Below the pieces are notes generated by a model. It was not told the origin of the DNA. It did not search any database and saw nothing but the letters and a program-made list of their open reading frames with translations. From NCBI GenBank assembly GCA_964481135.1, contig CAYZSW010000001.1, positions 7,963 through 71,962 of the forward strand: 64,000 bases of DNA, in the 5' to 3' direction. The translations under genes were made by a program, and so were the position numbers. Positions 12,047 to 59,337 of the stretch are shown piece after piece (the first letter of the stretch is position 1; each line of letters opens with the position of its first letter). The DNA comes from an uncultured Candidatus Saccharibacteria bacterium (lineage in GTDB: Bacteria > Patescibacteriota > UBA1384 > JAMDBS01 > DAOVQR01).

Positions 12047-12577
12047 TTACTTTTTAATTTGAAAACTAAACATTGTAAGTGAAATTCCAAATATTAAAGC
12101 ATAAACGCCAATCACCCAAACAATAAATTCTAAACTAATAATTGGGAAAAATAAAATTGTTATACCAACAATTAAAGATATCGCTCCGACAGTACTTAAA
12201 AGCCATTTGCCGATAACCTCTCCTTTTGTGGAAAAACCAACTATTAATTCCATAATTCCTGCAATAACTGCCCATATTGCAACAAAATAAATTAGTGTTA
12301 ATACTGTAATAGCTGGCCAAACAAAAATTAATACTCCAATTATAATCCCTAAAATACCATTTAATAAGTAAATCCACCACTTTTCATGATGATCCTTTGC
12401 TGAAAAAGATCCGATGATCATAATGATACCACTTAAAGAAGCATAGATTGCAAACAATACTACAATTGTTTTAATAGTAAGTCCTGTCCAAAAAAGTGCT
12501 ATTAATCCAAATAAAATCGCTAAAATTCCCCTAAATAAAATTACTCCAGAATACTTTGACAAATAATTTTTATTCAT
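12047..12577 (-). CDS. DUF308/HdeD-like membrane protein
   Basis: 176 aa, six short TM helices with the repeated small-residue pattern typical of the HdeD family. Confidence 0.5.
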   Translation of the reverse strand: MNKNYLSKYSGVILFRGILAILFGLIALFWTGLTIKTIVVLFAIYASLSGIIMIIGSFSAKDHHEKWWIYLLNGILGIIIGVLIFVWPAITVLTLIYFVAIWAVIAGIMELIVGFSTKGEVIGKWLLSTVGAISLIVGITILFFPIISLEFIVWVIGVYALIFGISLTMFSFQIKK

Positions 12578-12631
12578 ATTAATCCTTTCATAATTTTAAT
12601 TATAACAAAAATTATAAAAGTTGTATAATTA

Positions 12632-12660
12632 TTGACCAAAAAAAATATATCTGTTATAAT
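12632..12660 (+). promoter_or_regulatory. sigma70-type promoter (TTGACC, 17 bp, TATAAT) upstream of tRNA-Lys
   Basis: Hexamers and spacing read directly; ~55 nt upstream of the tRNA. Confidence 0.5.
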
Positions 12661-12715
12661 CATTTTTGACCTCATCAAATTGTAAAAAGAAAATTATTAA
12701 TCATGCACTCAGGAA

Positions 12716-12790
12716 GGGCCTGTAGCTCAGTGGTAGAGCAGGAGCCTTTTAAGCTCTGTGTCATGGGTTCAATCCCCATCAGGCCCTCCA
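12716..12790 (+). tRNA. tRNA-Lys (anticodon UUU), CCA encoded
   Basis: GGGCCTG/TA/GCTC-AGTGGTA-GAGC/A/GGAGC-CTTTTAA-GCTCT/GTGTC/ATGGG-TTCAATC-CCCAT/CAGGCCC/T/CCA. Complete cloverleaf with a TTCAATC T-loop and anticodon TTT. Confidence 0.9.
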
Positions 12791-12829
12791 GATACAAGCC
12801 CTTCCTGAGTGCATATATAAATAAATTAA

Positions 12830-13072
12830 GCCTTTTAAAGTCCGGCGGGGATAACTGTGCCAATCTGTATCATAGTTTCGACCTCGTGCCGTATACCACG
12901 ATTCTGTAATAACAGGATGTAATCCGTTTTACAGAAAGCTGTGCCCAGTATACGACGATTCTGTCATATTAGAACATAATTCAATTGACAGAAAGGAGTT
13001 TTACCGGGGAGTTATGCTGGTATTCCCATATGACCCTCCAAAAAATCACCAGAAATTTGGTGATTTTTTTAT
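12830..13072 (+). ncRNA. candidate small structured RNA: two tandem hairpin modules plus an intrinsic terminator
   Basis: Repeated units GTATAC(C/G)ACGATTCTGT(A/C)A..loop..T(T/G)ACAGAAAG, then CCGGGG..CCC, then the terminator at 13043-13072. No ORF, in a large noncoding gap. Confidence 0.3.
13043..13072 (+). terminator. rho-independent terminator
   Basis: AAAATCACCAGAAATTTGGTGATTTTTTTATT: 8-bp stem and a T run. Confidence 0.7.
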
Positions 13073-13223
13073 TGTATATATTGCCATATAAAAAATATAA
13101 TTAACATTTTGTCTAGTATTCTTCAACAGCTTTTCAAGCTCTTTCATATGCGATTTCAAAATCTACTTGCACTTTTTTAACTTCTTCTTTTGAGATTTTA
13201 TTTCTTTCATTCCATTGATTACC

Positions 13224-13295
13224 TTTTACTAACCTCCGGGGTTAGTAAAAGGTTTGAACCTGCAAATCTTTTGCAAACCCCGGAGGTTAGTAAAA
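13224..13295. repeat. 18-bp perfect inverted repeat (TTTTACTAACCTCCGGGG / CCCCGGAGGTTAGTAAAA) enclosing a 36-nt sub-hairpin
   Basis: Read directly. It sits in a ~400-bp stretch free of ORFs. Confidence 0.5.
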
Positions 13296-13473
13296 TCAGG
13301 TGATAATTTTAGTATTAGCAAATTTTTGAAGTAACTCATAGCATATTAGGTTTTTGCAAAAAAATATAATTACAAAAAAAATAAAAGACAGAATTTACTG
13401 TCTCTTTTTTTATAACCTATTTTAAAAAGTAATGTATAATATACTTAATAATAAAAATCAAAGGAGGTAAATT

Positions 13474-13788
13474 ATGGATAAGTGTTTTTGCAAAACATGG
13501 TGGGGAATTTTGTTAATGATAATAATTACAGGATTATTGATTTATTTTTTTATGAACATATCAAAAAATAAAAATAGTGATGATAATATTGATGCAAATG
13601 TATTACCGCCTAAATATTTGTCTCAAATGGAAAAATGCGAAATTTTTGGCGGAACAATTGAAAAACAAGATGAAAGCGTGGACTCGTGGCAACAACTAAA
13701 TAAGTGGCGATGTGTTTGCCAAGAAGAAAAAATATTCGATACACAAAGCCAATTGATGTGTAACAAGTGGTACGAACCAGAAATATAA
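13474..13788 (+). CDS. hypothetical small Cys-containing membrane-anchored protein
   Basis: GGAGG RBS, N-terminal TM helix, 6 Cys in the ectodomain. Confidence 0.45.
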   Translation: MDKCFCKTWWGILLMIIITGLLIYFFMNISKNKNSDDNIDANVLPPKYLSQMEKCEIFGGTIEKQDESVDSWQQLNKWRCVCQEEKIFDTQSQLMCNKWYEPEI

Positions 13789-13811: not shown

Positions 13812-15086
13812 TTAGGTACCTTGTTGCCAAGAATTAAGATATTTAATTTGTTCTTGAGTTAGTTTATCTATTTTTATATCCAAAGCTTTAAGTTGAAGTT
13901 TAGAGATTTTTTCATCAAACTCATCCGGTAAAAGATAAACTTTATTTTCTAATTTATTTTGATTATCAACCAAATATTTACAAGCAAAAAATTGATTACA
14001 AAAACTCATTGCCATAATAGTTGAAGGGTGGCCTTCCGCAGCTGCTAAATTACATAATCTGCCCTGTGCAACTAAATATAAACTTTTTTTACCTGTAGTG
14101 TATTTGTCTAAATAAGGACGAATAAATTCTTTTCTATTAGAAATTTTTTCTAAACCATTAACATTAATTTCCACATCAAAATGTCCAGAATTTGCTAAAA
14201 TTGCTCCATCTTTCATAATTTTCATATGAGGAGCGTCAATAACATGAATATTACCAGTCAGTGTAATAAATATATCCCCTATTTTTGCTGCTTGGTTTAA
14301 AGGCATAACTCTATAACCTTCCATTATCGCTTGTAAAGCACAAAAAGGATCAACTTCAGTAACAATTACATTGGCTCCGAGTCCACTGGCTCTGCGGGCA
14401 ACACCTTTGCCGCAATTTCCAAATCCAATAATTACAACTACTTTACCAGCAAATAAAGTATTTGTTGCGCGCAAGATACCGTCAATAGTAGATTGACCAG
14501 TTCCAATATAATTATCCATTAAATGTTTAGTTTTAGAATCATTTACAGCAATAACTGGGTATTGCAGAGCTTTTTCTTTTTCCATTGATTTAAGTCGAAT
14601 AATACCTGTTGTAGTTTCTTCTGCGCCTCCAATTATATACTTAAGCAATTCTCTGTGTCGTGTATGAATTTCAAACACCAGATCACAGCCATCATCAATT
14701 GTAATTAATTTCATCTTTTTTTGTGCCATATCTTTCATAAAATTAATTACAGATTTAATATTTTGATAATATTCTTTTTTACTTTCACCTTTATGCGCAA
14801 AAACTGCAACACCTTCTTTGGCTAAAGCAGCAGCTACATCATCTTGAGATGAAAGCGGATTACAGCTAGCAATTGCAACTTGAGCCCCTGCATGTTTTAA
14901 AGTTCTTACTAAAACTGCGGTTTCTTTTGTAACATGTAATGCCATACCAATCGCAATGTTTTTTAGTGGTTTGGTTTTTTTAAATTCTTGTTGAACTTCA
15001 ATTAAAGCACCCATTTGATTTTCTGCCCAAGTAATATTTTTTTGTCCTTGCGGGGCAAGTTTAATGTCTTTTACAGAATATTTCAT
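13812..15086 (-). CDS. ahcY: adenosylhomocysteinase (S-adenosyl-L-homocysteine hydrolase)
   Basis: NAD-binding GFGNCGKG and catalytic-domain motifs; 424 aa. Confidence 0.9.
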   Translation of the reverse strand: MKYSVKDIKLAPQGQKNITWAENQMGALIEVQQEFKKTKPLKNIAIGMALHVTKETAVLVRTLKHAGAQVAIASCNPLSSQDDVAAALAKEGVAVFAHKGESKKEYYQNIKSVINFMKDMAQKKMKLITIDDGCDLVFEIHTRHRELLKYIIGGAEETTTGIIRLKSMEKEKALQYPVIAVNDSKTKHLMDNYIGTGQSTIDGILRATNTLFAGKVVVIIGFGNCGKGVARRASGLGANVIVTEVDPFCALQAIMEGYRVMPLNQAAKIGDIFITLTGNIHVIDAPHMKIMKDGAILANSGHFDVEINVNGLEKISNRKEFIRPYLDKYTTGKKSLYLVAQGRLCNLAAAEGHPSTIMAMSFCNQFFACKYLVDNQNKLENKVYLLPDEFDEKISKLQLKALDIKIDKLTQEQIKYLNSWQQGT

Positions 15087-15995
15087 TTAAAACTCCCTTA
15101 TTTTATTAAATATATTATATCTTTCTTGAATATCTTTAAAGCTAATATTTGTTAATTTATTAATAGAAAAATCTTCTGTACAAAAAGAAGCAATCGAAGA
15201 TCCATAAATAATTGCTCTTCTAATGTTTGATTCTGACGCATCGGAAGTTTTTGCTAAATAACCAATAAGAGAACCTGCAAAAGAATCACCTGCTCCAGTA
15301 GGATCAACCAAATCTTCTAAAGGATAAGCTGGTGCAGAAAAAAAACCGCGGTGAGAAAAAAGTAAAGACCCATGTTCTCCTTTTTTTATAATTACAAATT
15401 CTGGACCCATTTGTAAAGCTAAATGACCAGCTTTAATTAGATTTGGTGTTTTGTAAAGTTGTCTGGCCTCTTGCTCATTTAAAAGTAAAATATTACTTTT
15501 ATTAATAACCTTTACAAGCGAAGTATATTTTTTATCAATCCAATAGTTCATCGTGTCAATTAAAACAACTTTAGGTAAGGTGAATTGTTTTAATACTTTT
15601 AATTGCAAATCTGGATCGTTGTTGGCTAAAAATACATATTCTGAGTTTTTATGTTGCTCTGAAATATTTGGATTAAATGCTTCTAAACAATTTAAACAAG
15701 TTTTAATGGTCTGTGCCTCGTTCATATCATATTTATACTCACCCTGCCAACGAAAAGTTTTACCATTTTTTGTTAAATTGGAAATATCAATATTTTTTTT
15801 CTTAAGTGTTTGAAAATATTTTTCAGGAAAATCTTCACCAACCGCACTAACTAAAGCAATTGAAAAATTACTTGCAAAATATGATGCGCAAATTGATGCA
15901 TAAATAGCACTTCCGCCTAAAACATTTTTTTGTCTACCAAAAGGTGTTTTAATATCATCAATACCAATTGATCCAAAAATTACTAACTTTTTCAT
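15087..15995 (-). CDS. PfkB-family carbohydrate/nucleoside kinase (possible adenosine kinase given the ahcY neighbour)
   Basis: DPTGAGDSFAGSLIGYLA anion-hole motif of the ribokinase/PfkB family. Confidence 0.7.
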   Translation of the reverse strand: MKKLVIFGSIGIDDIKTPFGRQKNVLGGSAIYASICASYFASNFSIALVSAVGEDFPEKYFQTLKKKNIDISNLTKNGKTFRWQGEYKYDMNEAQTIKTCLNCLEAFNPNISEQHKNSEYVFLANNDPDLQLKVLKQFTLPKVVLIDTMNYWIDKKYTSLVKVINKSNILLLNEQEARQLYKTPNLIKAGHLALQMGPEFVIIKKGEHGSLLFSHRGFFSAPAYPLEDLVDPTGAGDSFAGSLIGYLAKTSDASESNIRRAIIYGSSIASFCTEDFSINKLTNISFKDIQERYNIFNKIREF

Positions 15996-38371: not shown

Positions 38372-38788
38372 TTGCTAATTCAACAAATTACAAATAATAT
38401 TAAAAACATTATGGATAATTTAATATATCCAGAATTAAGCTATAAGATAGTGGGTTTGCTTTTTGAAGTATATAATAAATTAGGATATGGTTTGAGAGAA
38501 AAAGATTATCAAAAAGCGATATCAATTTTCTTGAGTGAAAATAATATTATATTTCAAGAACAAGTATCCGCAAATCTTAAAATTAATAATCAGAATATAA
38601 GAAAATATTATTTGGATTTTATAATTGATAATAAAATTGTTTTGGGATTAAAAACTGAAAATAGATTTAATAAAAATAATATTGCTCAAATATACAGTTA
38701 TTTAAAATCAACTAACAAAAAATTAGGAATTATAGCAAACTTTTCAAAATATGGAGTTAAATTTAAAAGAATTGTAAATATTAAATAA
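38372..38788 (+). CDS. GxxExxY family protein (PD-(D/E)XK-like)
   Basis: IVGLLFEVYNKLGYGLREKDYQKAI matches the family signature; 138 aa. Confidence 0.75.
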   Translation: MLIQQITNNIKNIMDNLIYPELSYKIVGLLFEVYNKLGYGLREKDYQKAISIFLSENNIIFQEQVSANLKINNQNIRKYYLDFIIDNKIVLGLKTENRFNKNNIAQIYSYLKSTNKKLGIIANFSKYGVKFKRIVNIK

Positions 38789-42230: not shown

Positions 42231-42259
42231 TTTATCCCTCCCTATTGATAGAAGCAGAA

Positions 42260-42697
42260 TTACGCAGATAGTGACGCAGAAGTACGCGGAACTTTACTGC
42301 GAGCTTTATCATAAACTCTGCGTATTATTTCTAACTTTTCCGCTCCAAAATTTATTAATAATCCTAATTTATATTTTGAACCTTTTAAATATAACCAAAA
42401 TTGTCGCTTATCTTCTTTAGTTATAAATGGTTTGCATTTAAGTTCTAAAAGAATTTTATCATTTATTATTTTATCTGGTTGATATATTCCAACCTTTTTA
42501 TTATTGAAATAAATATTAATTTTTACTTGATTTTTTACTTTAAGATTTTTGTTTTCTAGAGCAATAGTTAATGCCCTGTCAACAATTTTTTCTTTAAATG
42601 CTCCACCAAAGCATTTCCATACTTCAAAACATGCTCCTCTGACCTTGTAAGTTATATCTTTATAAAGTAATTTGTCTTGATTCATATGCTTCTGCAT
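42260..42697 (-). CDS. GxxExxY family protein
   Basis: GACFEVWKCFGGAFKEKIVDRAL signature. Flanked by imperfect inverted repeats rich in CTGCGTAATT and ACGCAGATA. Confidence 0.7.
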   Translation of the reverse strand: MQKHMNQDKLLYKDITYKVRGACFEVWKCFGGAFKEKIVDRALTIALENKNLKVKNQVKINIYFNNKKVGIYQPDKIINDKILLELKCKPFITKEDKRQFWLYLKGSKYKLGLLINFGAEKLEIIRRVYDKARSKVPRTSASLSA

Positions 42698-42775
42698 TAT
42701 TCTGCGTAATTATCTGCGTTTATCGGCTTCTACAATTTATTAAATCAAAAATATTAATATTTCACAAGTGGATAA

Positions 42776-49119: not shown

Positions 49120-49326
49120 AATTAAATAAAATTTCTAATTTTTCTAATTGATCTAATTATTCTAAACAAATACCAAACTATAATTTCTAATGTCTAAATG
49201 TATTTTCTCTTTTTTGTTATTGGTGTTTGGGTCATTTTTTAGGTTAATTACCTGCCCGCCATTAGCTATCGCTTCAAGCGATTAGCAGGCGGGGAAATTA
49301 GGTTAATTAGGTTAATTTCTACTCGC
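49120..49326. repeat. repeated leader element, copy B
   Basis: GAAATTAGGTTAATTAGGTTAATTTC, a CCTGCCCGCC...GGCGGG hairpin and TTAGAATAATTAGATCAATTAG, ending in CAATTAGAAAAATTAGAAATTT before an ATG. Confidence 0.5.
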
Positions 49327-51251
49327 TATGGTGAATAATTCACCGACACATCGTAAACAACCGGTGTTTTGCTATTCTCAAGTGTTGTTAAATATATTTT
49401 ATATTTTATATATCTTCCTAAAGAATGTGAAAGAGGAATTGCTTCTCCATCTGGATTGGTAAATCGCGTTGCTTCTGTTCCGTCTGGTCCTACAAAATTC
49501 CATGTTGCATTATCAGTATTAGTAGCAATTTGGAATTCTACATTTGTTACTCCGGGATCGATCAATTCTGTCCAAAAAATCCGATTAAATGAAACTTCAT
49601 CACCTGCATCAAAAGTACTTGATATATATTGCCCAGACGGAAAGTAACCAGTTTCTGCGATAGCTGAAAGTCGAAACATTGTATCTTGATTATTAAATAC
49701 ATTCCAATTTGTACCGGCATTATTGCTTTCTGTATATCTTGCATCTAAACCCAGATAATTAATATCATTGTCTGGGCTTCGGTCTAAATTTTCTGCGTGT
49801 TCTATGTGATATGATCGATTATGTGCAGTTCCAGGTGATTTTAGATAAAATCTATATTGCCTTCCTTCTATAAAAGCAATTTTTGGGTCAAGTGAAATTT
49901 CATGTAGTTGATAATCCATAGTAATATCTGTTCTTGTAACAAAAATTTCGTTAAATAAAATAGTATTGGTTGTCATATCTTCAATAACTAAATATAAATC
50001 ATCTTGAGGCTGAGCACCAACACTTTTTTTAACATAAATTGCCATTCTATTAAAAAACTCTGTACCCTCTTTGTAAGTAAAAATTTCTCCTTTATAAAAA
50101 TTTCCGTAAACATCTTTGTCTCGTGCTTCATGATATGGATTTCCTTCGGCTTCTGGGTTGCTATCAGTAAATAATAAAATATAAACAGGCGTATTATTAA
50201 CATCTGACCAGTTTGCGCCACCATTACTAGTCCAGCGGATCATAAGATTTAAATCATCTGCACTAGTTAAAGGCACAACCAAGTTTAAAGGATTTAAAGT
50301 TCTAAATATAATTGATCTTCCGGCATTTATTTGACCTGAATTATGCTCTATTACTAGGTGATAAATATTACCAGCTGTAATAGAAACATTTTCATTTAAA
50401 TTAAGTTCATGCCAGCCAGTGTTATTAGTTTGAAAATCTTTATAACCCTCATTATTACCTCCCAACCAATTACCACTTGGACTACCGTTATTATCTGATT
50501 GCAGTCCATATCTATATGTAGGAGTTTGATTTTGATGAGTAGAAGAAATGTAAATTCTAAGCGCTCTTACCTCTTTTGTATTTTGAGCAGTAAAACGAAA
50601 AGAAACTTTTTTACTTGAATTATCTAATGCATCTGTTTGGCTAGTACCAAAAACAGAGAATCTGTTACCAACTTGCTTGCCTTCACCTTGTCCATAAGCA
50701 AGCTTAATTTCACCACCTTGATCGTTTGTAACTTCTGTATCATTTACAGTCCCATCTATAAAATCATTATAAGTTGTTTCAATCCAATTAGCATTGTTTT
50801 GATAACGAGTCAGATATATTTCCTTAGATATAGATAAATTACGGGGTTTTTGCCAAGAAACAGAAATAATAAATTTTTTTGTCGATGGGTCCTCAATTCC
50901 ACTTTCTGATATTTCTCCGCTAACCGCATTACGGTAAACTGATTCGATAGAGATGCTTCTAGTAAAATTATCATCGATATTTTCTACACCATCTGCTAAA
51001 TTCCACACTCCGTTATTATTTATAATACGAGCGGGATATGTATGATAAACTAAGTCATTCCACGACCGCTCGTGTATTGAATAAAGAGCATTAACTGCTT
51101 CTTGAACATATTCTTCTGCTTGAGTTTGTTTTAATGAATTAAACTGAGCTTGTGAAATATCTACAAAAAGACCAATAACTGAACTAATTATTACACTAGC
51201 AATAGCAGTAGCAATAATAAGCTCAATTAGAATTTGACCTTTATTTGACAC
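49326..51251 (-). CDS. large (~640 aa) pilin-like protein, candidate tip or PilY1/PilV-like adhesin subunit
   Basis: The ORF-track N-terminal extension translates a CA-rich leader. A GTG ~51251 gives MSNKG / QILIELIIATAIASVII, a classic short prepilin leader, followed by 600 aa of beta-rich sequence. Confidence 0.5.
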   Translation of the reverse strand: MSNKGQILIELIIATAIASVIISSVIGLFVDISQAQFNSLKQTQAEEYVQEAVNALYSIHERSWNDLVYHTYPARIINNNGVWNLADGVENIDDNFTRSISIESVYRNAVSGEISESGIEDPSTKKFIISVSWQKPRNLSISKEIYLTRYQNNANWIETTYNDFIDGTVNDTEVTNDQGGEIKLAYGQGEGKQVGNRFSVFGTSQTDALDNSSKKVSFRFTAQNTKEVRALRIYISSTHQNQTPTYRYGLQSDNNGSPSGNWLGGNNEGYKDFQTNNTGWHELNLNENVSITAGNIYHLVIEHNSGQINAGRSIIFRTLNPLNLVVPLTSADDLNLMIRWTSNGGANWSDVNNTPVYILLFTDSNPEAEGNPYHEARDKDVYGNFYKGEIFTYKEGTEFFNRMAIYVKKSVGAQPQDDLYLVIEDMTTNTILFNEIFVTRTDITMDYQLHEISLDPKIAFIEGRQYRFYLKSPGTAHNRSYHIEHAENLDRSPDNDINYLGLDARYTESNNAGTNWNVFNNQDTMFRLSAIAETGYFPSGQYISSTFDAGDEVSFNRIFWTELIDPGVTNVEFQIATNTDNATWNFVGPDGTEATRFTNPDGEAIPLSHSLGRYIKYKIYLTTLENSKTPVVYDVSVNYSP

Positions 51252-51333
51252 AGAATTACACAAATTGGAACACAAATTACCACACCTATTAAGTTGATGT
51301 GTATTTCTGTGTTCTGTTTTGTGTTTTTCTGTG

Positions 51334-51858
51334 TTAATTAACATCAATTACTCCCAACTTATTAATTGTAAAATTTCTAGTTTCGCCGGAGCTTAACTCA
51401 GATAATGAAAAATTTTTATTTTGCTCATCGTAATTCCTTACATTACCAAAAACTTTCTCAAAGACAATTGTCGAATTATCTGGTAAATTTGAATCTAATG
51501 ATAAATTGTCTGGTAAATTTACATTGATATTATAATTATCACTCGGGTTATAAATAATTCCCCGATATAAAACAATTTTATTTTCAACTGAATCAAAATA
51601 TATGCTAAAATTTTCGCCCGACTCAGCTGTATCGCAATTTTGGGTACACATTCTACTCATTGCCTGATTCTGTGCCTGATATATAGTAGATAATATTTGA
51701 GTCGAAAAAGAATCCAAACTGTTGGTTCGTTGAAAATTTAAATAAGAAACCCACGATCCAGCTAAAATAATACCAAAAATTCCTATCGTCACTAATAGTT
51801 CAATTAAAGTAAAACCTTTTTTAACTTGTAGCTGGTAGCTTTTTAGCTTATTAGACAA
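51334..51858 (-). CDS. pilin-like protein (prepilin-type N-terminal domain)
   Basis: TTG start after GGAGGGGC. KKG / FTLIELLVTIGIFGIILA. Confidence 0.65.
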   Translation of the reverse strand: MSNKLKSYQLQVKKGFTLIELLVTIGIFGIILAGSWVSYLNFQRTNSLDSFSTQILSTIYQAQNQAMSRMCTQNCDTAESGENFSIYFDSVENKIVLYRGIIYNPSDNYNINVNLPDNLSLDSNLPDNSTIVFEKVFGNVRNYDEQNKNFSLSELSSGETRNFTINKLGVIDVN

Positions 51859-51948
51859 TGCCCCTCCGTTTACTAGCTTATTAGTTTGTAGCCTTTTAAC
51901 TTATTAGAGAAAAATATCTAAGAAGCTAATTAGCTAATTCCTAAGAAG

Positions 51949-52407
51949 CTATTTTAAATGCTCTTTAATCTTTTCTACAACTTGATTTGGTGTAAGGTTT
52001 GCTTTTACTAAATAATCATTTGCGCCAAGTTTTTTTGCTCTATCAATATCAGTTTGCTGGCCAAGATTAGAAAATACTACTACTGGTTTTTTGGCGTTCG
52101 GCCAACTACTGGCACGAAGTTTTTCTAATATTTCAAATCCATCTACTTTTGGAAGCATCAGGTCTAAAAGTATAATACTATAATCATTTTTCTCTAATTT
52201 TTCTAAAGCTTGTTGTCCATCAAGAGCATTATCAACTTCAAAACCTTCCATTGAACATTTTGTTGAATACATTTTTACTAGTAATTCATCGTCTTCTATA
52301 ATTAATAATTTACCACCATTTTTTTCCAATTGTGCTGATTGATTAGCTGTATTGTCTGCTGGCTGTGGTTGACCCTGAGGTTGAACTGGTATTTGTTGAT
52401 TTTGCAT
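51949..52407 (-). CDS. single-domain response regulator (CheY-like receiver only) with a Q/P-rich N-terminal tail
   Basis: REC-domain motifs (LLIIEDD, DLMLP, receiver lysine region). Start chosen at MQNQQ after GAAAGGAG. Confidence 0.7.
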   Translation of the reverse strand: MQNQQIPVQPQGQPQPADNTANQSAQLEKNGGKLLIIEDDELLVKMYSTKCSMEGFEVDNALDGQQALEKLEKNDYSIILLDLMLPKVDGFEILEKLRASSWPNAKKPVVVFSNLGQQTDIDRAKKLGANDYLVKANLTPNQVVEKIKEHLK

Positions 52408-52456
52408 AATTATACTCCTTTCTTTCACACAGAACTACACAAATAGGAATACAAAT

Positions 52457-52882
52457 TTACACTTTAGTTAAAAACGGTTTTCTATCATTGGTGTAAATGA
52501 TTCTTTTGACATATAGTTTTAGTGTAGAAAAATTTACTAAATAACCTATTTCATATTTACTATTTCTTAAATAATGATAAAGTTGTATTTCGTCTTGTTT
52601 AGTAGTGAATCTTGACGATTTCAATTCTATAATAATTTTATTATCGATAATTACATCTGGTTTATAACTTCCTACTTTTTTACCAGTCTGATTAGAATAA
52701 ATACTAATTAATTTTTCTTTTTCAATTTTTATTTGTTTATTTGTTAAATATTCAATCAATAAATTCTGATAAATTGATTCTTTGTGACCAGGTCCGTATT
52801 CCTTTCTTATTTCGAAAAAACATCCTTGAACAATATAGCTTAATTCCTTGTAAAGGAACAGCTTCTTATCTGGTGCGTTCAT
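52457..52882 (-). CDS. GxxExxY family protein
   Basis: [29 protein letters not shown]. Start MNAPDKK follows AGGAACACAA. Flanked by ~20-bp imperfect inverted repeats at 52425-52465 and 52870-52920. Confidence 0.7.
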
Positions 52883-53023
52883 TTGTGTTCCTGTTTGTGT
52901 TGTTTTGTGTTGTAACCAACGGTAATGTAAAGCTAAAATTGGAGCCATGCCCTTCGCGACTCTCTACCCATATTTTACCACCACATCCTTCAACTATCAA
53001 TCGGGAAATGTAAAGGCCTAAAC

Positions 53024-55201
53024 CTAATCCTGACCCTGACCTTCGATAACTTTTTTAGTTCCACCAGATACTTGATAATACTTAGTAAATAATGCCTCTT
53101 GTTTTTCTTCGGAAATACCTTGTCCAGAATCAGAAATAGAAAACTGGGCGAATTTATCTTTTAATTGTATATCAAATTTAACCCAACCACTTTTAGTATA
53201 TTTTATAGCGTTATCTATTAGATTAGTAAGAACTTGCTGAATTTTATCAGAATCAGTATAAACAAAAAGTTGCTCAGGAATTTCCTCAAGCTTAAATTCA
53301 AGACCTTTTTTCTCGGCTATTGGAGATATCTGTTTAATTAAAGTTTTTACAATGGGAATAATATCTATATTTTTTGGCTGAATAGTAATTTTCCCTTTTT
53401 CTATACGAGATGAAGTTAAAAAATCATTAACCATGCGAATTAATCTTTCGGAAGCAGATTGAGTTTCTTTAAGTGGTTCGCGTAAAGTTTCTGGAATTTG
53501 CCCAAAGTCACCATTTAAAATCATATCATTATATCCCTTAATGGCTGTCATTGGAGTTCTTAGATCGTGTGCGGCAATATTTAAAAATTCATCTTTCATT
53601 TTTGCAAGTTCTCTTTCTTTTGAAACATCATGAAACACTACCACGCAACCTATAATTTTATTGTTATTATCTCGTAGAGGAGAAGCACTATCTGCAACTG
53701 GAATTTTTTTATTATATTTTGTAAGTAGGTAAGTATGATTTGTCATATAGGTAATCGTGCCACTAGTCATAGCGTCTCGGACAAATTTATCATTTATTGA
53801 ATTGTCTTTTTCTAAATAAAATTTAAGTATATCTTTGTATACTTTGCCAACTGCTTCTTCTTTAGTATATCCAGAAATTTTTTCTGCAATAGAGTTAAAC
53901 ATAATTATCTTTTCATCTAGTCCAATTACAAATACAGCATCTCCAATAGAAGAAAGTATTGCTTGAATTTTATTTCGTTCGTGTTCAGTTTTTAGTTTTT
54001 CCTCATTTACATCTTCTAAAATATTTAAAATTGCCTTTTGTTGATTTTGCATTTTTTGATCGTTTAGTTTAATCTCTTTTGTTTGCTCTTCTACTTTTTT
54101 ATCAATTTCGGCACGAGATACTTTAATAGCACTAGTTAAATTATCAATTTCTCTTGATAGGTCTCCGATTTCATCTTTAGAATTATTACCAACCTTGTAA
54201 TCCAAATCTCCTTTTTGAATAATTTTTATGCCTTTATGCAAATTTTCAATTGGTTTAGAAAGAATGCGAGCAACAAATAGAGCTACCGCAAAAGAAAATA
54301 ATAAATAAACTAAACTAATAACTATCAAAATATTTATTTCATGATTAATTGGCGCAAAAACTTCCTTTTGATCAATCTTAACAACTAGTCCCCAGCCGGT
54401 GTGGTCAATATAACGAGACGCAGAAAAAACTTTTTCGTTACGATAATCAGCTAAATCTGTAAAGTAATCTTCGTTATTTAAAAGTGCCTGAACAAGTGGT
54501 ATGTGTGTATCTAATTTAGTTACTTTTACACCGGGTGGATAAGGATGTCTGGTTTCTAAAAAATACTCAACATCATTGTTTTCATCTAACCTAGCAATTA
54601 TTGTTTCTCCTGTTTCACCCAACCCAGAGTAATCATTCATAATATTAATTATTTCTTCTGGACTTGTTTGAACAATAGACACACCTAACACATTTTCATC
54701 TTTTTGTATTGGGCCGGCAAGATAAAACCAATTTTCTTTATTTTCTTCGTCTTTTACAAATGTAATATAATTTTTTTCCTTGCCAAATTCAAAATATTCT
54801 TCGCTAGAAAAATTTTTGTTTTCTTGATCTTTTTCACTTGAAGCAATAACTTTACCATCTTTATCTGTTATCCAAAGAGCGTTATAATCTGTACTTGATT
54901 TTTTAGCATCTTCTAATCGTCGCGAGAGGTCATCTTTGTCTATTGAATCAGGATTGTTATAATAATCCTGCATTAAATCAATAACCCCCACTCTTGAAGT
55001 AAAAATTTTAATTCGTTCTAAATTAATATTAATAAGATTTTCAACTCTTGATTCTTGTAAATCTGCTATTACATTTAATTTTTCCTCGGTATTATCTAAA
55101 GCATTTTTTCGCATCTCAAAATAACCATAAAAAATGGATATCAAAAAAGAGAAAAATGCTATACAAACTATGCTAATAATAATTCTTGTTCTGATTTTCA
55201 T
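53024..55201 (-). CDS. sensor histidine kinase (TM, extracytoplasmic domain, HAMP, PAS, HisKA, HATPase_c); 3' end frameshifted in an A6 run
   Basis: [14 protein letters not shown]-box and [10 protein letters not shown]1 box. The ORF stops at GQGQD, but the G2 box [41 protein letters not shown] continues in another frame down to ~52876. Confidence 0.75.
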
Positions 55202-55252
55202 AATAATTATATTGGTAACGCGTAATGGGTAATAAGTAACGCGTAATTAATA

Positions 55253-55789
55253 TTATCTAATATTTTTTCTTGCCGCATACATTCTTTCAGCTAAACCACC
55301 ATTTTGTAAAAAATCTTTTTCTAAACTCTGAAGCTGGCGATCTAATAGATAGTTAGCTTGGTGAATTAAACAAATTATTGAATTTGCTGCAGATTCTGGA
55401 TCTGACATATAGGTCATATAAGTCTCATAAGACCTATTCGACCTATAAGATAATTTTCTAATTTCCTGAATTCGTGAATCTTCTTTGTTCCAAAGTTTTA
55501 ATTTTTTCTGACGCAAAAAATCCAAATAATCTTCTAAAAGTTCTTCTAAACTTGCCCTAGCCACACCAATAAGTTTTATTTCAGATTTTTTTGATGTACC
55601 TGAAACTTGACTTCCTTCAACAATATTTTGCTTTCCACTTCTTGCGGCTTGGACCATTTGATCACGCGTCCTAGAAAATTTACTAACATATTTATTACAA
55701 AATTGGTCTGTCAAATCGTAAACTATAACCGAATTTTGATAGGATTTTAACTTTTTGTATCCTCCATGAATAGATATAAAATTTGACAT
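55253..55789 (-). CDS. four-helix-bundle protein (TIGR02436 / 23S rRNA intervening-sequence protein family)
   Basis: KSYQNSVIVYDL...GKQNIVEGS pattern; 178 aa. Confidence 0.65.
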   Translation of the reverse strand: MSNFISIHGGYKKLKSYQNSVIVYDLTDQFCNKYVSKFSRTRDQMVQAARSGKQNIVEGSQVSGTSKKSEIKLIGVARASLEELLEDYLDFLRQKKLKLWNKEDSRIQEIRKLSYRSNRSYETYMTYMSDPESAANSIICLIHQANYLLDRQLQSLEKDFLQNGGLAERMYAARKNIR

Positions 55790-55887
55790 TTAATTTTTCC
55801 TTAAATTTTATTTATTCTACTATCTTACCTACTTGCCTACAGGTCTTACTATTTATCTACCATCCTACTGGCCTACTTTCTACTAGC

Positions 55888-56208
55888 CTACTTGTCTAAT
55901 TTCTCCACTAACTTCATAATTTCTTCTTGGTGTTTTTTTACTACTTCCTGATTTCTAAATTTTTTGGCAAACTGGGCTAATTCTCTTAGGGAATTTATGA
56001 TTGATTCTTTGGTTGGATTTTCAAAATCCCCTCCGGAATCAACGAATGCTTTTTTAACAATTTCTACACAGTATTCTTTTTCCATAGATTCCTGATTAGA
56101 AACTCCTGCATCGCTACAATGTGCCTGGCTAAAACATTCGCTTATTGCATCGCGCACCATAAGTGGTGTAATTTTTTCATTTAAATCAACTCCGTAAATT
56201 TTTGTCAT
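55888..56208 (-). CDS. hypothetical protein
   Basis: 106-aa acidic ORF. Leader has (A)GTAGG repeats. Confidence 0.4.
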   Translation of the reverse strand: MTKIYGVDLNEKITPLMVRDAISECFSQAHCSDAGVSNQESMEKEYCVEIVKKAFVDSGGDFENPTKESIINSLRELAQFAKKFRNQEVVKKHQEEIMKLVEKLDK

Positions 56209-56259
56209 AATTTTCCTTTCTAATGGCCTACTAGCCTATCTTTCTACTAATCCAAAGGC

Positions 56260-56472
56260 CTAGCGTTTATCTAAATTAATTATTCTTAAAATTTCCTCGC
56301 AAATTTTCATATGTTCAATTTCTTCGTCACGGATTTTTTCCACAACTTCTCTTTTTTGAGGATCTTTTAAAGTAAGCAAATAATTAGAATACAAATCCTT
56401 TGCTTGTTTTTCTATAAAATACAAATCATAAAACATTTCCCTTAATGTATCGTGACTATTTTCCTTGTTCAT
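56260..56472 (-). CDS. hypothetical small protein
   Basis: 70 aa. DEEIEHM is faintly ferritin-like. Overlaps the upstream gene by 17 nt. Confidence 0.3.
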   Translation of the reverse strand: MNKENSHDTLREMFYDLYFIEKQAKDLYSNYLLTLKDPQKREVVEKIRDEEIEHMKICEEILRIINLDKR

Positions 56473-57631
56473 ATTTTATAAGCTCCTTAAATTTATTTTC
56501 ATGATCTATACTCTCCTCGACTAAGTGATTTAATCTGTTAATTATTTGCTGTTTTTTTTCATTATCTAAATCAGAATGCTCTACTTTTAGTAAATAATAT
56601 GATTTTAATTTTTGAATTACACTTTCTTCGACATCTATTGCTATTTGAAATTTTTCTTCCCAGGTTTCTGAATCTTCTGTTTTATATTCTTTATTTTTTC
56701 TTAATTTGCTAATTTGTTCTTTCAGTTCAATCATTCTGATTTCTCTGCCGACTAACACTTCATTAATTTTTTCTAATTCCTTAGTTCTTTGGGCAACTTT
56801 TCCTTCAATATTTGTTTTTTCTTCTTTAAGCTTGTTAGTCATTTGATTGATATTTTCACTAAGTAATCCTATTTCATCTCGTGATTTAATTTCTAATTTT
56901 TTATCTAAATCTCCATCAATAATCTTTTGTGAAATATCCTGAATCTGTCTAACTGGGTTTAAAATTGATCTAATAAAGATAAAATAAATTATTATTAGAA
57001 AAATAATAAAAATTATTATAAAAACAATATACAAATAAATTTGATAGTTGATTGATTTTTTTAAATTTTCATTTGATTGACTTAATTTTTTGGTGGATAA
57101 ATCTATAGCTTCATCGTATGCCGTATTGCGTTTAGTTAAATATTGATCTAGACCAGATTTATAAATTTCTTTTTGTTTCCAATACTCACTGCTTTCCAAT
57201 ATTTTTTGCGCCTCATCTTTATTGCCTTCATCAACTAATTTTATTGCCTCTTCTTCCATTGCAACAAGTGCAAGATTGGCTTCATCTACATTGGAAAATG
57301 CTTGTTTATCTTCATCGTCTCCTTTTTCTATAGCTTGATTTATTCTTAGCTCGAGTTTAGGCACAAATTCTTCATATCTAGTTTTCCACTTTTTATCTCC
57401 TGTAAAAGCATAATTTCTAGCCGATTGGGTTAATACTTCATCGTCATAGCGAATAAGCTCAGCTATACCATCAAGATATGAAGTTTCATTTAAATCATTA
57501 ACTAATTCGGTAAAATCAGTTTCTAAATAATTAATATTTTTACTTTCTTCAGAAATAATAAAATACCCGACTGAAATTGTCAGCATCATTAACGCAATCA
57601 AGATTAATAATATTTTTGTTCTGATTTTCAC
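56456..57631 (-). CDS. HAMP-domain membrane protein (MCP-like sensor module with no output domain)
   Basis: TM, 170-aa periplasmic domain, TM, HAMP (DEIGLLSENINQMTNKLK), coiled coil ending LVGREIRMIELKEQISKL. N-terminus MKIRTKI is paralogous to the kinase MKIRTRI. Confidence 0.6.
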   Translation of the reverse strand: MKIRTKILLILIALMMLTISVGYFIISEESKNINYLETDFTELVNDLNETSYLDGIAELIRYDDEVLTQSARNYAFTGDKKWKTRYEEFVPKLELRINQAIEKGDDEDKQAFSNVDEANLALVAMEEEAIKLVDEGNKDEAQKILESSEYWKQKEIYKSGLDQYLTKRNTAYDEAIDLSTKKLSQSNENLKKSINYQIYLYIVFIIIFIIFLIIIYFIFIRSILNPVRQIQDISQKIIDGDLDKKLEIKSRDEIGLLSENINQMTNKLKEEKTNIEGKVAQRTKELEKINEVLVGREIRMIELKEQISKLRKNKEYKTEDSETWEEKFQIAIDVEESVIQKLKSYYLLKVEHSDLDNEKKQQIINRLNHLVEESIDHENKFKELIKYEQGK

Positions 57632-58089: not shown

Positions 58090-59337
58090 TTATTTTCCTT
58101 TCAACCTTTCAATCTCTTTTTTAAGCTCTATCATTTTAAGTTCGCGACCCACCATAAGATTATTCATTTTTTCTGTAAATTGCGTTTGTTTTTTTAATTT
58201 TTCTTGCGCTTCCATTTCTTTTGAAATATCAAAAATAAATCCTTCTAGGTGTTTAATATTTCCCTTATTATCTTTTATTGCAAGTCCCTTTTCATGAACC
58301 CAAATATTTTTTTCATCTTTACTTATGATACGATAATCAATTTCCCAGTATCTATTTTCTTTTACTGCCTTGGAAATTCCTTCTGATACTAGACTTCTAT
58401 CTTGTTTGTAAATTACACTTTCATAAGTTCTAATTTTATTTTCTACAAAATCACTTGCCTTATATCCACACAACTGCTCAATATAATTACTTACAAACAT
58501 CATGGTCCAATTTTTATCAAACTTACATTTGTAAATAATTCCCGGGATATTATTAACTAAATTTGAAAATTCTTTTTGAAACTGCTCAAGCTTAATTTTA
58601 TTTAGCTTATTTTCATTAATATCTCTATCTATTCCTCTATATCCGGTGGATCCATCTTGTTTTTTTACTGGTAGACCATAACTTAAAATCCAAAATATTT
58701 TTCCATTTTTATCTAAAAGACGATTTTCTAAATTGATTGTCTTTTTACCTTCTTTAATAAAAGCTAAGCCAATTTTTTTAATTTCTTCTTTGTCTGGAGA
58801 CAAATCATAAAAATGTTTTTTGCCAATGACCTCTTCTGGCTTATATCCCAAAACTTGTTCTATAGAAGGACTTACATATGTATACAAACCATTTTCATCA
58901 ACTTCCCAAATAAAAGATTTGCTTTCACTAACTAAACTTTCGTATGCCTTATTTAATTCAAGAATTTTTTGTTCGTTTTTAATTCTATTGGTAATATCGT
59001 GAGCTAAACTTAAAATTGCTTTTTTGCCATGAAAGTCAATAACTTGGGAATTAATTTCTACTGGAATTTCCCTGCCATTACTTGTAACATGAGCCGAACG
59101 AAATACTAACTTTCCTTTGGATTTTAACTCCTGGATTCTTTGGGGCACCATTTTAGCATATTTAGGTGAATCAATTTTCTGTGGGCCAATTTCTAATAAC
59201 TGTTCTTTGGTGTATCCTAACCGACTGCAAGCTTCTTTATTGACATCTAAAAAATTACCCTCTAAGTCGTGGATAAATACAGCTTCATTTAAATTTTCGA
59301 ATATTATTTGATATTTATCATCCATTTTTGCTTTCAT
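58090..59337 (-). CDS. multi-PAS sensor protein lacking a kinase domain
   Basis: Three PAS/PAC-like repeats, then a coiled coil ending MVGRELKMIELKKEIERLKGK. Confidence 0.6.
   Translation of the reverse strand: MKAKMDDKYQIIFENLNEAVFIHDLEGNFLDVNKEACSRLGYTKEQLLEIGPQKIDSPKYAKMVPQRIQELKSKGKLVFRSAHVTSNGREIPVEINSQVIDFHGKKAILSLAHDITNRIKNEQKILELNKAYESLVSESKSFIWEVDENGLYTYVSPSIEQVLGYKPEEVIGKKHFYDLSPDKEEIKKIGLAFIKEGKKTINLENRLLDKNGKIFWILSYGLPVKKQDGSTGYRGIDRDINENKLNKIKLEQFQKEFSNLVNNIPGIIYKCKFDKNWTMMFVSNYIEQLCGYKASDFVENKIRTYESVIYKQDRSLVSEGISKAVKENRYWEIDYRIISKDEKNIWVHEKGLAIKDNKGNIKHLEGFIFDISKEMEAQEKLKKQTQFTEKMNNLMVGRELKMIELKKEIERLKGK

Follow-up and report, generated by a model that had tools for sequence, protein, structure and literature searches.

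A probable one-base deletion in the G2 box of a sensor histidine kinase gene beside a GxxExxY cassette

The window, by which we mean the whole analysed stretch of 64,000 nucleotides, carries on its minus strand a truncated gene for a sensor histidine kinase, followed by a GxxExxY cassette and an intact single-domain response regulator (Table 1). The kinase ORF runs from an ATG at 55201 to a TAG at 53026-53024 and translates into 725 aa, with a transmembrane (TM) region and, by Pfam, dCache_1, HAMP, PAS and HisKA regions and the first two-thirds of HATPase_c. The H box is present (HisKA, 56.7 bits, residues 535-603, including the motif AAHDLRTP), and the part of HATPase_c retained in frame 0 comprises the N, G1 and F boxes, with profile positions 2-72 matched, according to both Pfam and an alignment to HK853; the F-box residues FTKYYQ are encoded in this frame. 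The remaining C-terminal elements of HATPase_c, its G2 box (GxGLGL) and the helix and strands behind it, are found in the -1 frame only, past the stop codon.

Table 1. Features at the kinase locus, in window coordinates.
Feature	Position	Strand	Basis and remarks
Single-domain response regulator, intact	51949..52407	-	Pfam Response_reg; presumed partner of the kinase
GxxExxY cassette (PF13366, PDDEXK_3)	52427..52910	-	Pfam; inverted repeats; L001 and L006 lack it here
Kinase 3' remainder, -1 frame	52866..53032	-	Translation; Pfam on the repaired protein; third-position differences; HK853 alignment
Sensor histidine kinase ORF, truncated	53024..55201	-	ORF list; Pfam domains; identical to database protein P0001
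Perfect tandem GGTCAG GGTCAG	53030..53041	-	Read from the sequence; exists only through the deletion
Frameshift site	53031..53035	-	Codon-by-codon DNA comparison with L001, L002 and L006; codon-position differences; homolog motif G-T-GLGL
A6 run	53051..53056	-	AAA AAA, Lys-Lys of GGTKK, read in frame 0
Four-helix-bundle gene (weak PF05635, 23S_rRNA_IVP)	55253..55789	-	Pfam, 30.9 bits against a gathering score of 33.8

Translation of the -1-frame remainder yields the GLGLGL of the G2 box, then the final helix and final two strands of HATPase_c and a tail of 15 aa, and ends at a TAA at 52868-52866. That the 3' end of the kinase lies in another frame, as a sequence-only reading had held, is borne out by the domain matches and by the length of the open frame: as found, HATPase_c scored 51.9 bits (profile positions 2-72 of 111), and after repair by one base, which gives a protein of 778 aa, 99.9 bits (positions 2-109 of 111). 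The -1 frame is open over about 54 codons, and since the longest off-frame open runs elsewhere in the gene reach 45 and 29 codons, the remnant is not due to chance. The same reading had let the repaired frame terminate inside an arm of the GxxExxY cassette, which is correct, but at about 52876 and thus a little short of the actual stop. A split protein made by reinitiation was considered as well and rejected: the sole start codon in the -1 frame is a TTG at 53000, which lies after the G2 box and is not accompanied by a Shine-Dalgarno-like sequence.

The cassette measures about 480 nt (ORF at 52882-52457) and is framed by imperfect inverted arms of 48 nt each (52427-52474 and 52863-52910), with 75% complementarity. 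Its place of insertion, between kinase and response regulator, is immediately behind the conserved FTLPL that closes the kinase, and the repaired kinase frame takes its tail and its stop codon from the 5' arm (52863-52910). In the relatives L001 and L006 the regulator follows the kinase directly, either overlapping it or 14 nt apart, and the cassette is missing from this place. The regulator of the window comprises 152 aa when read from its ATG, or 159 aa from an upstream GTG at 52428; its REC domain differs from that of L001 in 15 of 114 residues, with nucleotide differences mainly at third positions.

Two further GxxExxY genes (PF13366) are found in the window besides the one within 52427-52910, namely within 42249-42732 and at 38372-38788. 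The former is likewise bracketed (arms at 42249-42291 and 42690-42732, 77% complementarity), and the two bracketed cassettes have the same layout, with imperfect inverted repeats of about 45 nt but different arm sequences. The only tRNA of the window, tRNA-Lys(UUU) at 12716-12790, sits inside its largest non-coding gap (12577-13474). The ORF pair 13812-15086 and 15087-15995, a candidate for a gene interrupted by an in-frame stop, was rejected as such, being two separate genes joined as TAAATG.

Upstream of the kinase, the four-helix-bundle gene listed in Table 1 and a second gene of this kind (PF05635, 57695-58084) flank the sensor gene cluster; in the gene tables of L001 and L006, no counterpart is called directly upstream of the kinase. 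Two to three genes upstream of the kinase, at 56456-57631, a membrane sensor-like protein of 391 aa is encoded, with HAMP only and no kinase domain. Its counterpart in L001 (3357-4655, 432 aa, dCache_1) keeps the synteny with the kinase, and the protein may be an accessory sensor of the kinase system. After the response regulator, both here (49326-51858) and in L001 (53%-identical), follow a pilin-like N_methyl protein (174 aa) and a protein of 673 aa, and this shared order places the two-component system in synteny with type IV pilin-like genes. The closest relative in genome_contigs, a 'Patescibacteria group bacterium' MAG, stands at 52% identity, so that only distant relatives are represented there; the match, which bears on taxonomy only, fits the low GC content and the pilin-like neighbours.

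For locating the lesion, the repaired protein was used in a homology search, and the DNA was compared codon by codon with L001, L002 and L006. The search returned the truncated P0001 (725 aa), followed by the full-length proteins P0002 (61% identity), P0003 (53%), P0004 (62%) and P0010. At the junction, P0002 and P0003 read GGT(K/S)KVIEGQG-T-GLGLGL in a single frame, P0004 reads GGRDKVVEGQG-T-GLGLGL, and P0010 reads VVEGKG-T-GLGLGL; the G-T-GLGL motif was found in nearly all of the homologs listed. The frame-0 peptide of the window, TKKVIEGQG, matches these homologs through the A6 run and six further codons, and as the homologs keep V(I/V)EG(Q/K)G in frame 0 past the run, frame 0 is correct up to that point. 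In the DNA, the Gly codon GGT at 53035-53033 is then followed by only two bases, CA (53032-53031), where the relatives have ACT or ACA for Thr. The window reads GGT CAG GGT CA GGA TTA GGT TTA GGC, and the relatives have ACT or ACA followed by GGN TTG/CTT GGN TTA GGN. One base is thus absent between 53033 and 53032, in the Thr codon of the G2 box G-T-GLGL and in non-homopolymer sequence.

The distribution of differences over the codon positions agrees with this placement. Over the 17 codons from KYYQV to GQG, read in frame 0, differences at positions 1, 2 and 3 amounted to 0, 0 and 8 against L001, to 1, 1 and 11 against L002, and to 2, 1 and 8 against L006; over the 38 codons past the site, read in the -1 frame, the corresponding counts were 2, 3 and 18 (L001), 1, 3 and 23 (L002), and 4, 1 and 17 (L006). 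Each homolog shared five to six more identical residues with the protein repaired at the Thr codon than with the one repaired in the A6 run. The sequence-only reading had put the shift inside this run, which is contradicted by P0002, P0003, P0004 and P0010, the missing base lying in the Thr codon about 20 nt downstream; its repaired peptide, which contained SYRRSGS, matches none of the four proteins, in which VIEGQGT is the expected sequence. It had also left open that homologs might share a truncation before the G2 box, and all close homologs turned out to be full length. The nearest homopolymer can therefore mislead the placement of a frameshift, and homolog alignment together with the codon-position pattern narrows the lesion to one codon.

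The A6 run itself is present where it had been claimed, at 53056-53051. It falls within a zone of 34 nt that is open in both frames, and an additional A would lead into the open frame containing the G2 box; on this basis, replication slippage between A6 and A7 might flip the kinase off and on. We regard such phase variation as extremely improbable. The six codons past the run (VIEGQG) are conserved in frame 0 and differ at third positions only from L001, and mostly so from L002 and L006; an A7 'ON' form would exchange VIEGQGT for SYRRSGS, which no homolog backs. At the position of the run, the homologs have TKK, TSK or RDK, followed by V(I/V)EGQG in the same frame, and in L001, an intact relative, the corresponding position holds an A7 that is read in frame (ACA AAA AAA). 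Tract length was constant, with A6 in all eight contigs of the locus described below, and A6 is shorter than typical contingency tracts. In addition, A/T runs of at least six occur once per 146 nt in the window, which has 29.9% GC, and about 18-19% of random 34-nt windows hold one; because such runs are this common, finding one near the frame overlap is unremarkable. The earlier idea of a slippage-prone on/off run is thus not supported, the indel lying about 20 nt past an invariant tract that has an in-frame A7 equivalent in L001. Judged from these comparisons, the adjacency of the run to the zone of frame divergence is a coincidence, and the run a Lys-Lys coding stretch with no part in the lesion.

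Reproducibility of the deletion was assessed in a set of contigs retrieved via the neighbouring genes, exact look-ups of the 725-aa protein and of P0001 in the contig index having given no hit. A core of 61 nt, which includes the A6 run and GGTCAGGGTCAGGATTAG, was recovered exactly in 8 of 8 contigs, with an overall identity to the window of 99.96-100%: L003 (ENA ERZ27252296, a 46.7-kb MEGAHIT contig), L007 (JGI 3300033170), L008 (ENA ERZ27252300), L009 (JGI 3300033177), L010 (JGI 3300033176), L011 (ENA ERZ27252301), L012 (Logan SRR10872648) and L013 (Logan SRR10872584). These originate from at least three samples and from the pipelines of JGI, MEGAHIT k141 (ENA) and Logan; what was compared are consensus sequences, behind which a minority of intact alleles may exist, and the eight contigs probably go back to some three read sets, from a single project, that were processed by three pipelines. 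The JGI samples are anaerobic-digester metagenomes from Wageningen (table, PMC10159854).

Several contig ends coincide. L008, L010 and L012 all begin at window position 53374, a coincidence that points to three assemblies of a single data set, and L005 and L009 end at 54348-54350, inside the kinase gene and at the same position across assemblies. The shared ends at 53374 and 54348-54350 suggest a graph branch, caused by a paralogous kinase or by a co-existing strain that shares part of the gene, and a common read origin for some of the eight contigs. In an 11-kb segment compared between L003 and the window, all four mismatches (4/4) crowd into a 45-nt span where the contig begins (window 58260-58304, L003 28-72); an artefact of the contig end or a locally variable stretch may account for this cluster.

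Databases were searched for an intact allele from several sides. A look-up via the response regulator, which is independent of the kinase allele, returned the truncated arrangement only, and a look-up for the GxxExxY product of 141 aa that should be called beside an intact kinase found none on record. Among database proteins, the 725-aa form was the sole one with more than 61% identity to the repaired query (P0004 being listed at 62%), and the cluster table assigns three contigs to P0001. A search with the repaired C-terminal 140 aa listed only short proteins of at most 53% identity; P0001-P0004 and the known 116-aa contig-end fragments were likewise unlisted in it. Scanning genome_contigs and metagenome_contigs with a DNA pattern for either allele gave no match, and the known JGI contigs are also outside these collections, so that the scans do not bear on allele frequency.

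These data bear on the first of the origins that the sequence-only reading had offered, a sequencing or assembly indel. Consensus errors classically show up as a lone single-base indel in a gene that is otherwise undamaged, and the genome might be intact and carry GGTCAGGGTNCAGGA, with one base dropped in the consensus GGTCAGGGTCAGGA. The lesion is, however, identical in the eight contigs, three pipelines and at least three samples; it lies outside any homopolymer; no intact version was found among the proteins searched; and the ORF map of the 64-kb window, 88.5% of which is coding, contains no other obviously split gene. As the same non-homopolymer lesion recurs across samples and assemblers, we consider an assembly error very unlikely, and the identity of the 61-nt core in eight contigs, with three JGI samples and three pipelines, contradicts this part of the earlier reading.

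Provided that the deletion is real, recoding may still deliver some full-length kinase, through a -1 shift of the ribosome, either programmed or fortuitous, or through transcriptional slippage at A6. The required direction of the shift is -1, the downstream frame is still intact, and with a G preceding GGU, a GGG (53036-53034) is available in the -1 frame for a slip of tRNA-Gly; the product of this slip would read GQG-S-GLGL and thus contain a normal GSGLGL G2 box. Against this, frame 0 reads ACU AAA AAA GUU at the A6 run and CAG GGU CAG GAU UAG at the true site, and neither holds an X XXY YYZ heptamer in register, A AAA AAG being out of phase. Four folds around and downstream of the sites had z values of +0.18 to +1.01 relative to shuffled sequences and give no indication of a stimulatory RNA structure (pseudoknots lie outside the method), and an Rfam search of 51500-56500 returned no match. 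A6 is too short for efficient transcriptional slippage. Finally, P0002, P0003, P0004, P0010 and their loci are single-frame, and the frameshift is conserved in none of them. The slip of tRNA-Gly is conceivable at trace level, but no evidence for it was found. Recoding that restores the full-length kinase is a very improbable account.

For the protein, the consequences were deduced from the domain layout. Translation now ends in Gly-Gln-Asp-stop, and the product of 725 aa retains the sensor, HAMP, PAS and HisKA (DHp) regions with the N, G1 and F boxes. Of the ATP-binding domain, it lacks the G2 box, the final helix and the final two beta strands. In the Bergerat fold of HisKA-type kinases, the glycine loop of the G2 box contacts the nucleotide. 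The repaired C-terminal 236 aa aligned with the HK853 structures 4JAS, 3DGE and 2C2A over query positions 4-234 (E 1e-35 to 2e-34), and in this alignment the stop removes everything from GTGLGL on. Given the loss of the G2 box and of the C-terminal third of HATPase_c, we infer that the truncated kinase is kinase-dead, and it would not be expected to fold its ATP domain, to bind ATP or to autophosphorylate.

In its other parts the gene appears unimpaired: the kinase is otherwise lesion-free over 725 codons, its 3' remnant is open and highly conserved, and its branch length of 0.26-0.30, compared with 0.23-0.27 for the sister P0002, gives no sign of rate acceleration. The absence of a second lesion, the open and conserved 3' part and the unaccelerated branch together indicate that the deletion is recent. 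From the sequence comparisons, we therefore consider it likely that the G2-box Thr codon has recently lost one base, that this loss is fixed, and that it has left a truncated, kinase-dead sensor, that is, a young pseudogene. This agrees with the recent inactivating mutation proposed in the sequence-only reading, which is supported by the deletion relative to intact homologs, its identity in eight contigs and the lack of a second lesion. The deletion would be real in the population of the organism in the sampled anaerobic digester.

The deleted base would most likely be the A of an ACA Thr codon, between 53033 and 53032. With ACA assumed (the relatives having ACT or ACA), the ancestral sequence would have formed the quasi-repeat GGTCAG GGTACAG, the two halves of which the deletion turned into the perfect tandem of Table 1. 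Misalignment between GGTCAG and GGTACAG may have produced the deletion, and is a plausible origin of the mutation as far as it can be read from the repeat pattern.

An otherwise intact gene would look alike if the truncation were tolerated or functional, or if recoding took place at a low level. The truncated protein might be kept for a function: though kinase-dead, it could serve the intact response regulator as a phosphatase or as a scaffold, with another kinase phosphorylating that regulator. This is in keeping with the 725 codons free of a second lesion, with the branch that is not accelerated, and with the regulator that is intact and conserved; moreover, isolated DHp domains of some HisKA kinases, such as EnvZ, keep phosphatase activity. 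The same pattern is, however, predicted by a very recent pseudogene, no homolog stops before the G2 box, and half a HATPase_c domain would be likely to misfold. We rate retained function as unlikely, if clearly less so than recoding. Slightly less probable than retained function is the composite view that the truncated kinase persists as a sensor-phosphatase, or that a trace -1 slip (GGU to GGG, 53036-53033) gives a GSGLGL kinase. If true, the cassette insertion, which uncouples the kinase from the regulator, and the frameshift would together change the wiring of a two-component system within a reduced Patescibacteria genome. For the favoured reading, a recent inactivating deletion, the consequences hardly go beyond annotation. 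The gene is best recorded as that of a sensor kinase with a frameshift, placed at 53032/53033 rather than in A6, and as a probable pseudogene. The locus offers a snapshot of gene decay beside the poorly understood GxxExxY cassettes, with an operon interrupted and a kinase domain lost.

Among known systems, the closest solved structure is the HisKA-type (class I) kinase HK853 of Thermotoga maritima (PDB 2C2A, 3DGE, 4JAS). The repaired kinase has the H, N, G1, F and G2 boxes all in the same order and aligns end to end with it; unlike HK853, the kinase of the window has everything from the G2 box onward in another reading frame, and its product lacks this part. The architecture dCache-HAMP-PAS-HisKA-HATPase_c with an adjacent receiver-only regulator is the same in the relatives L001 and L006. 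The arms of the GxxExxY cassettes resemble the stems of 23S rRNA intervening sequences, but the cassettes of the window sit between protein genes. With the contingency loci of Neisseria, Haemophilus and Campylobacter, the sole likeness is the proximity of A6 to the point of frame divergence; in contrast to these loci, the indel of the kinase lies outside the tract, and the tract is constant in eight contigs and encodes a conserved in-frame Lys-Lys. Programmed -1 frameshifting of the dnaX and IS-element type is matched in the direction of the needed shift, but not in an in-register slippery heptamer, a stimulatory structure or conservation among homologs. Ordinary bacterial frameshift pseudogenes are resembled in the single one-base deletion relative to intact orthologs, in its reproducibility and in the loss of an essential motif; the kinase differs from them in that its lesion would be very young, with no second lesion, and in that it stands beside a newly inserted GxxExxY cassette.
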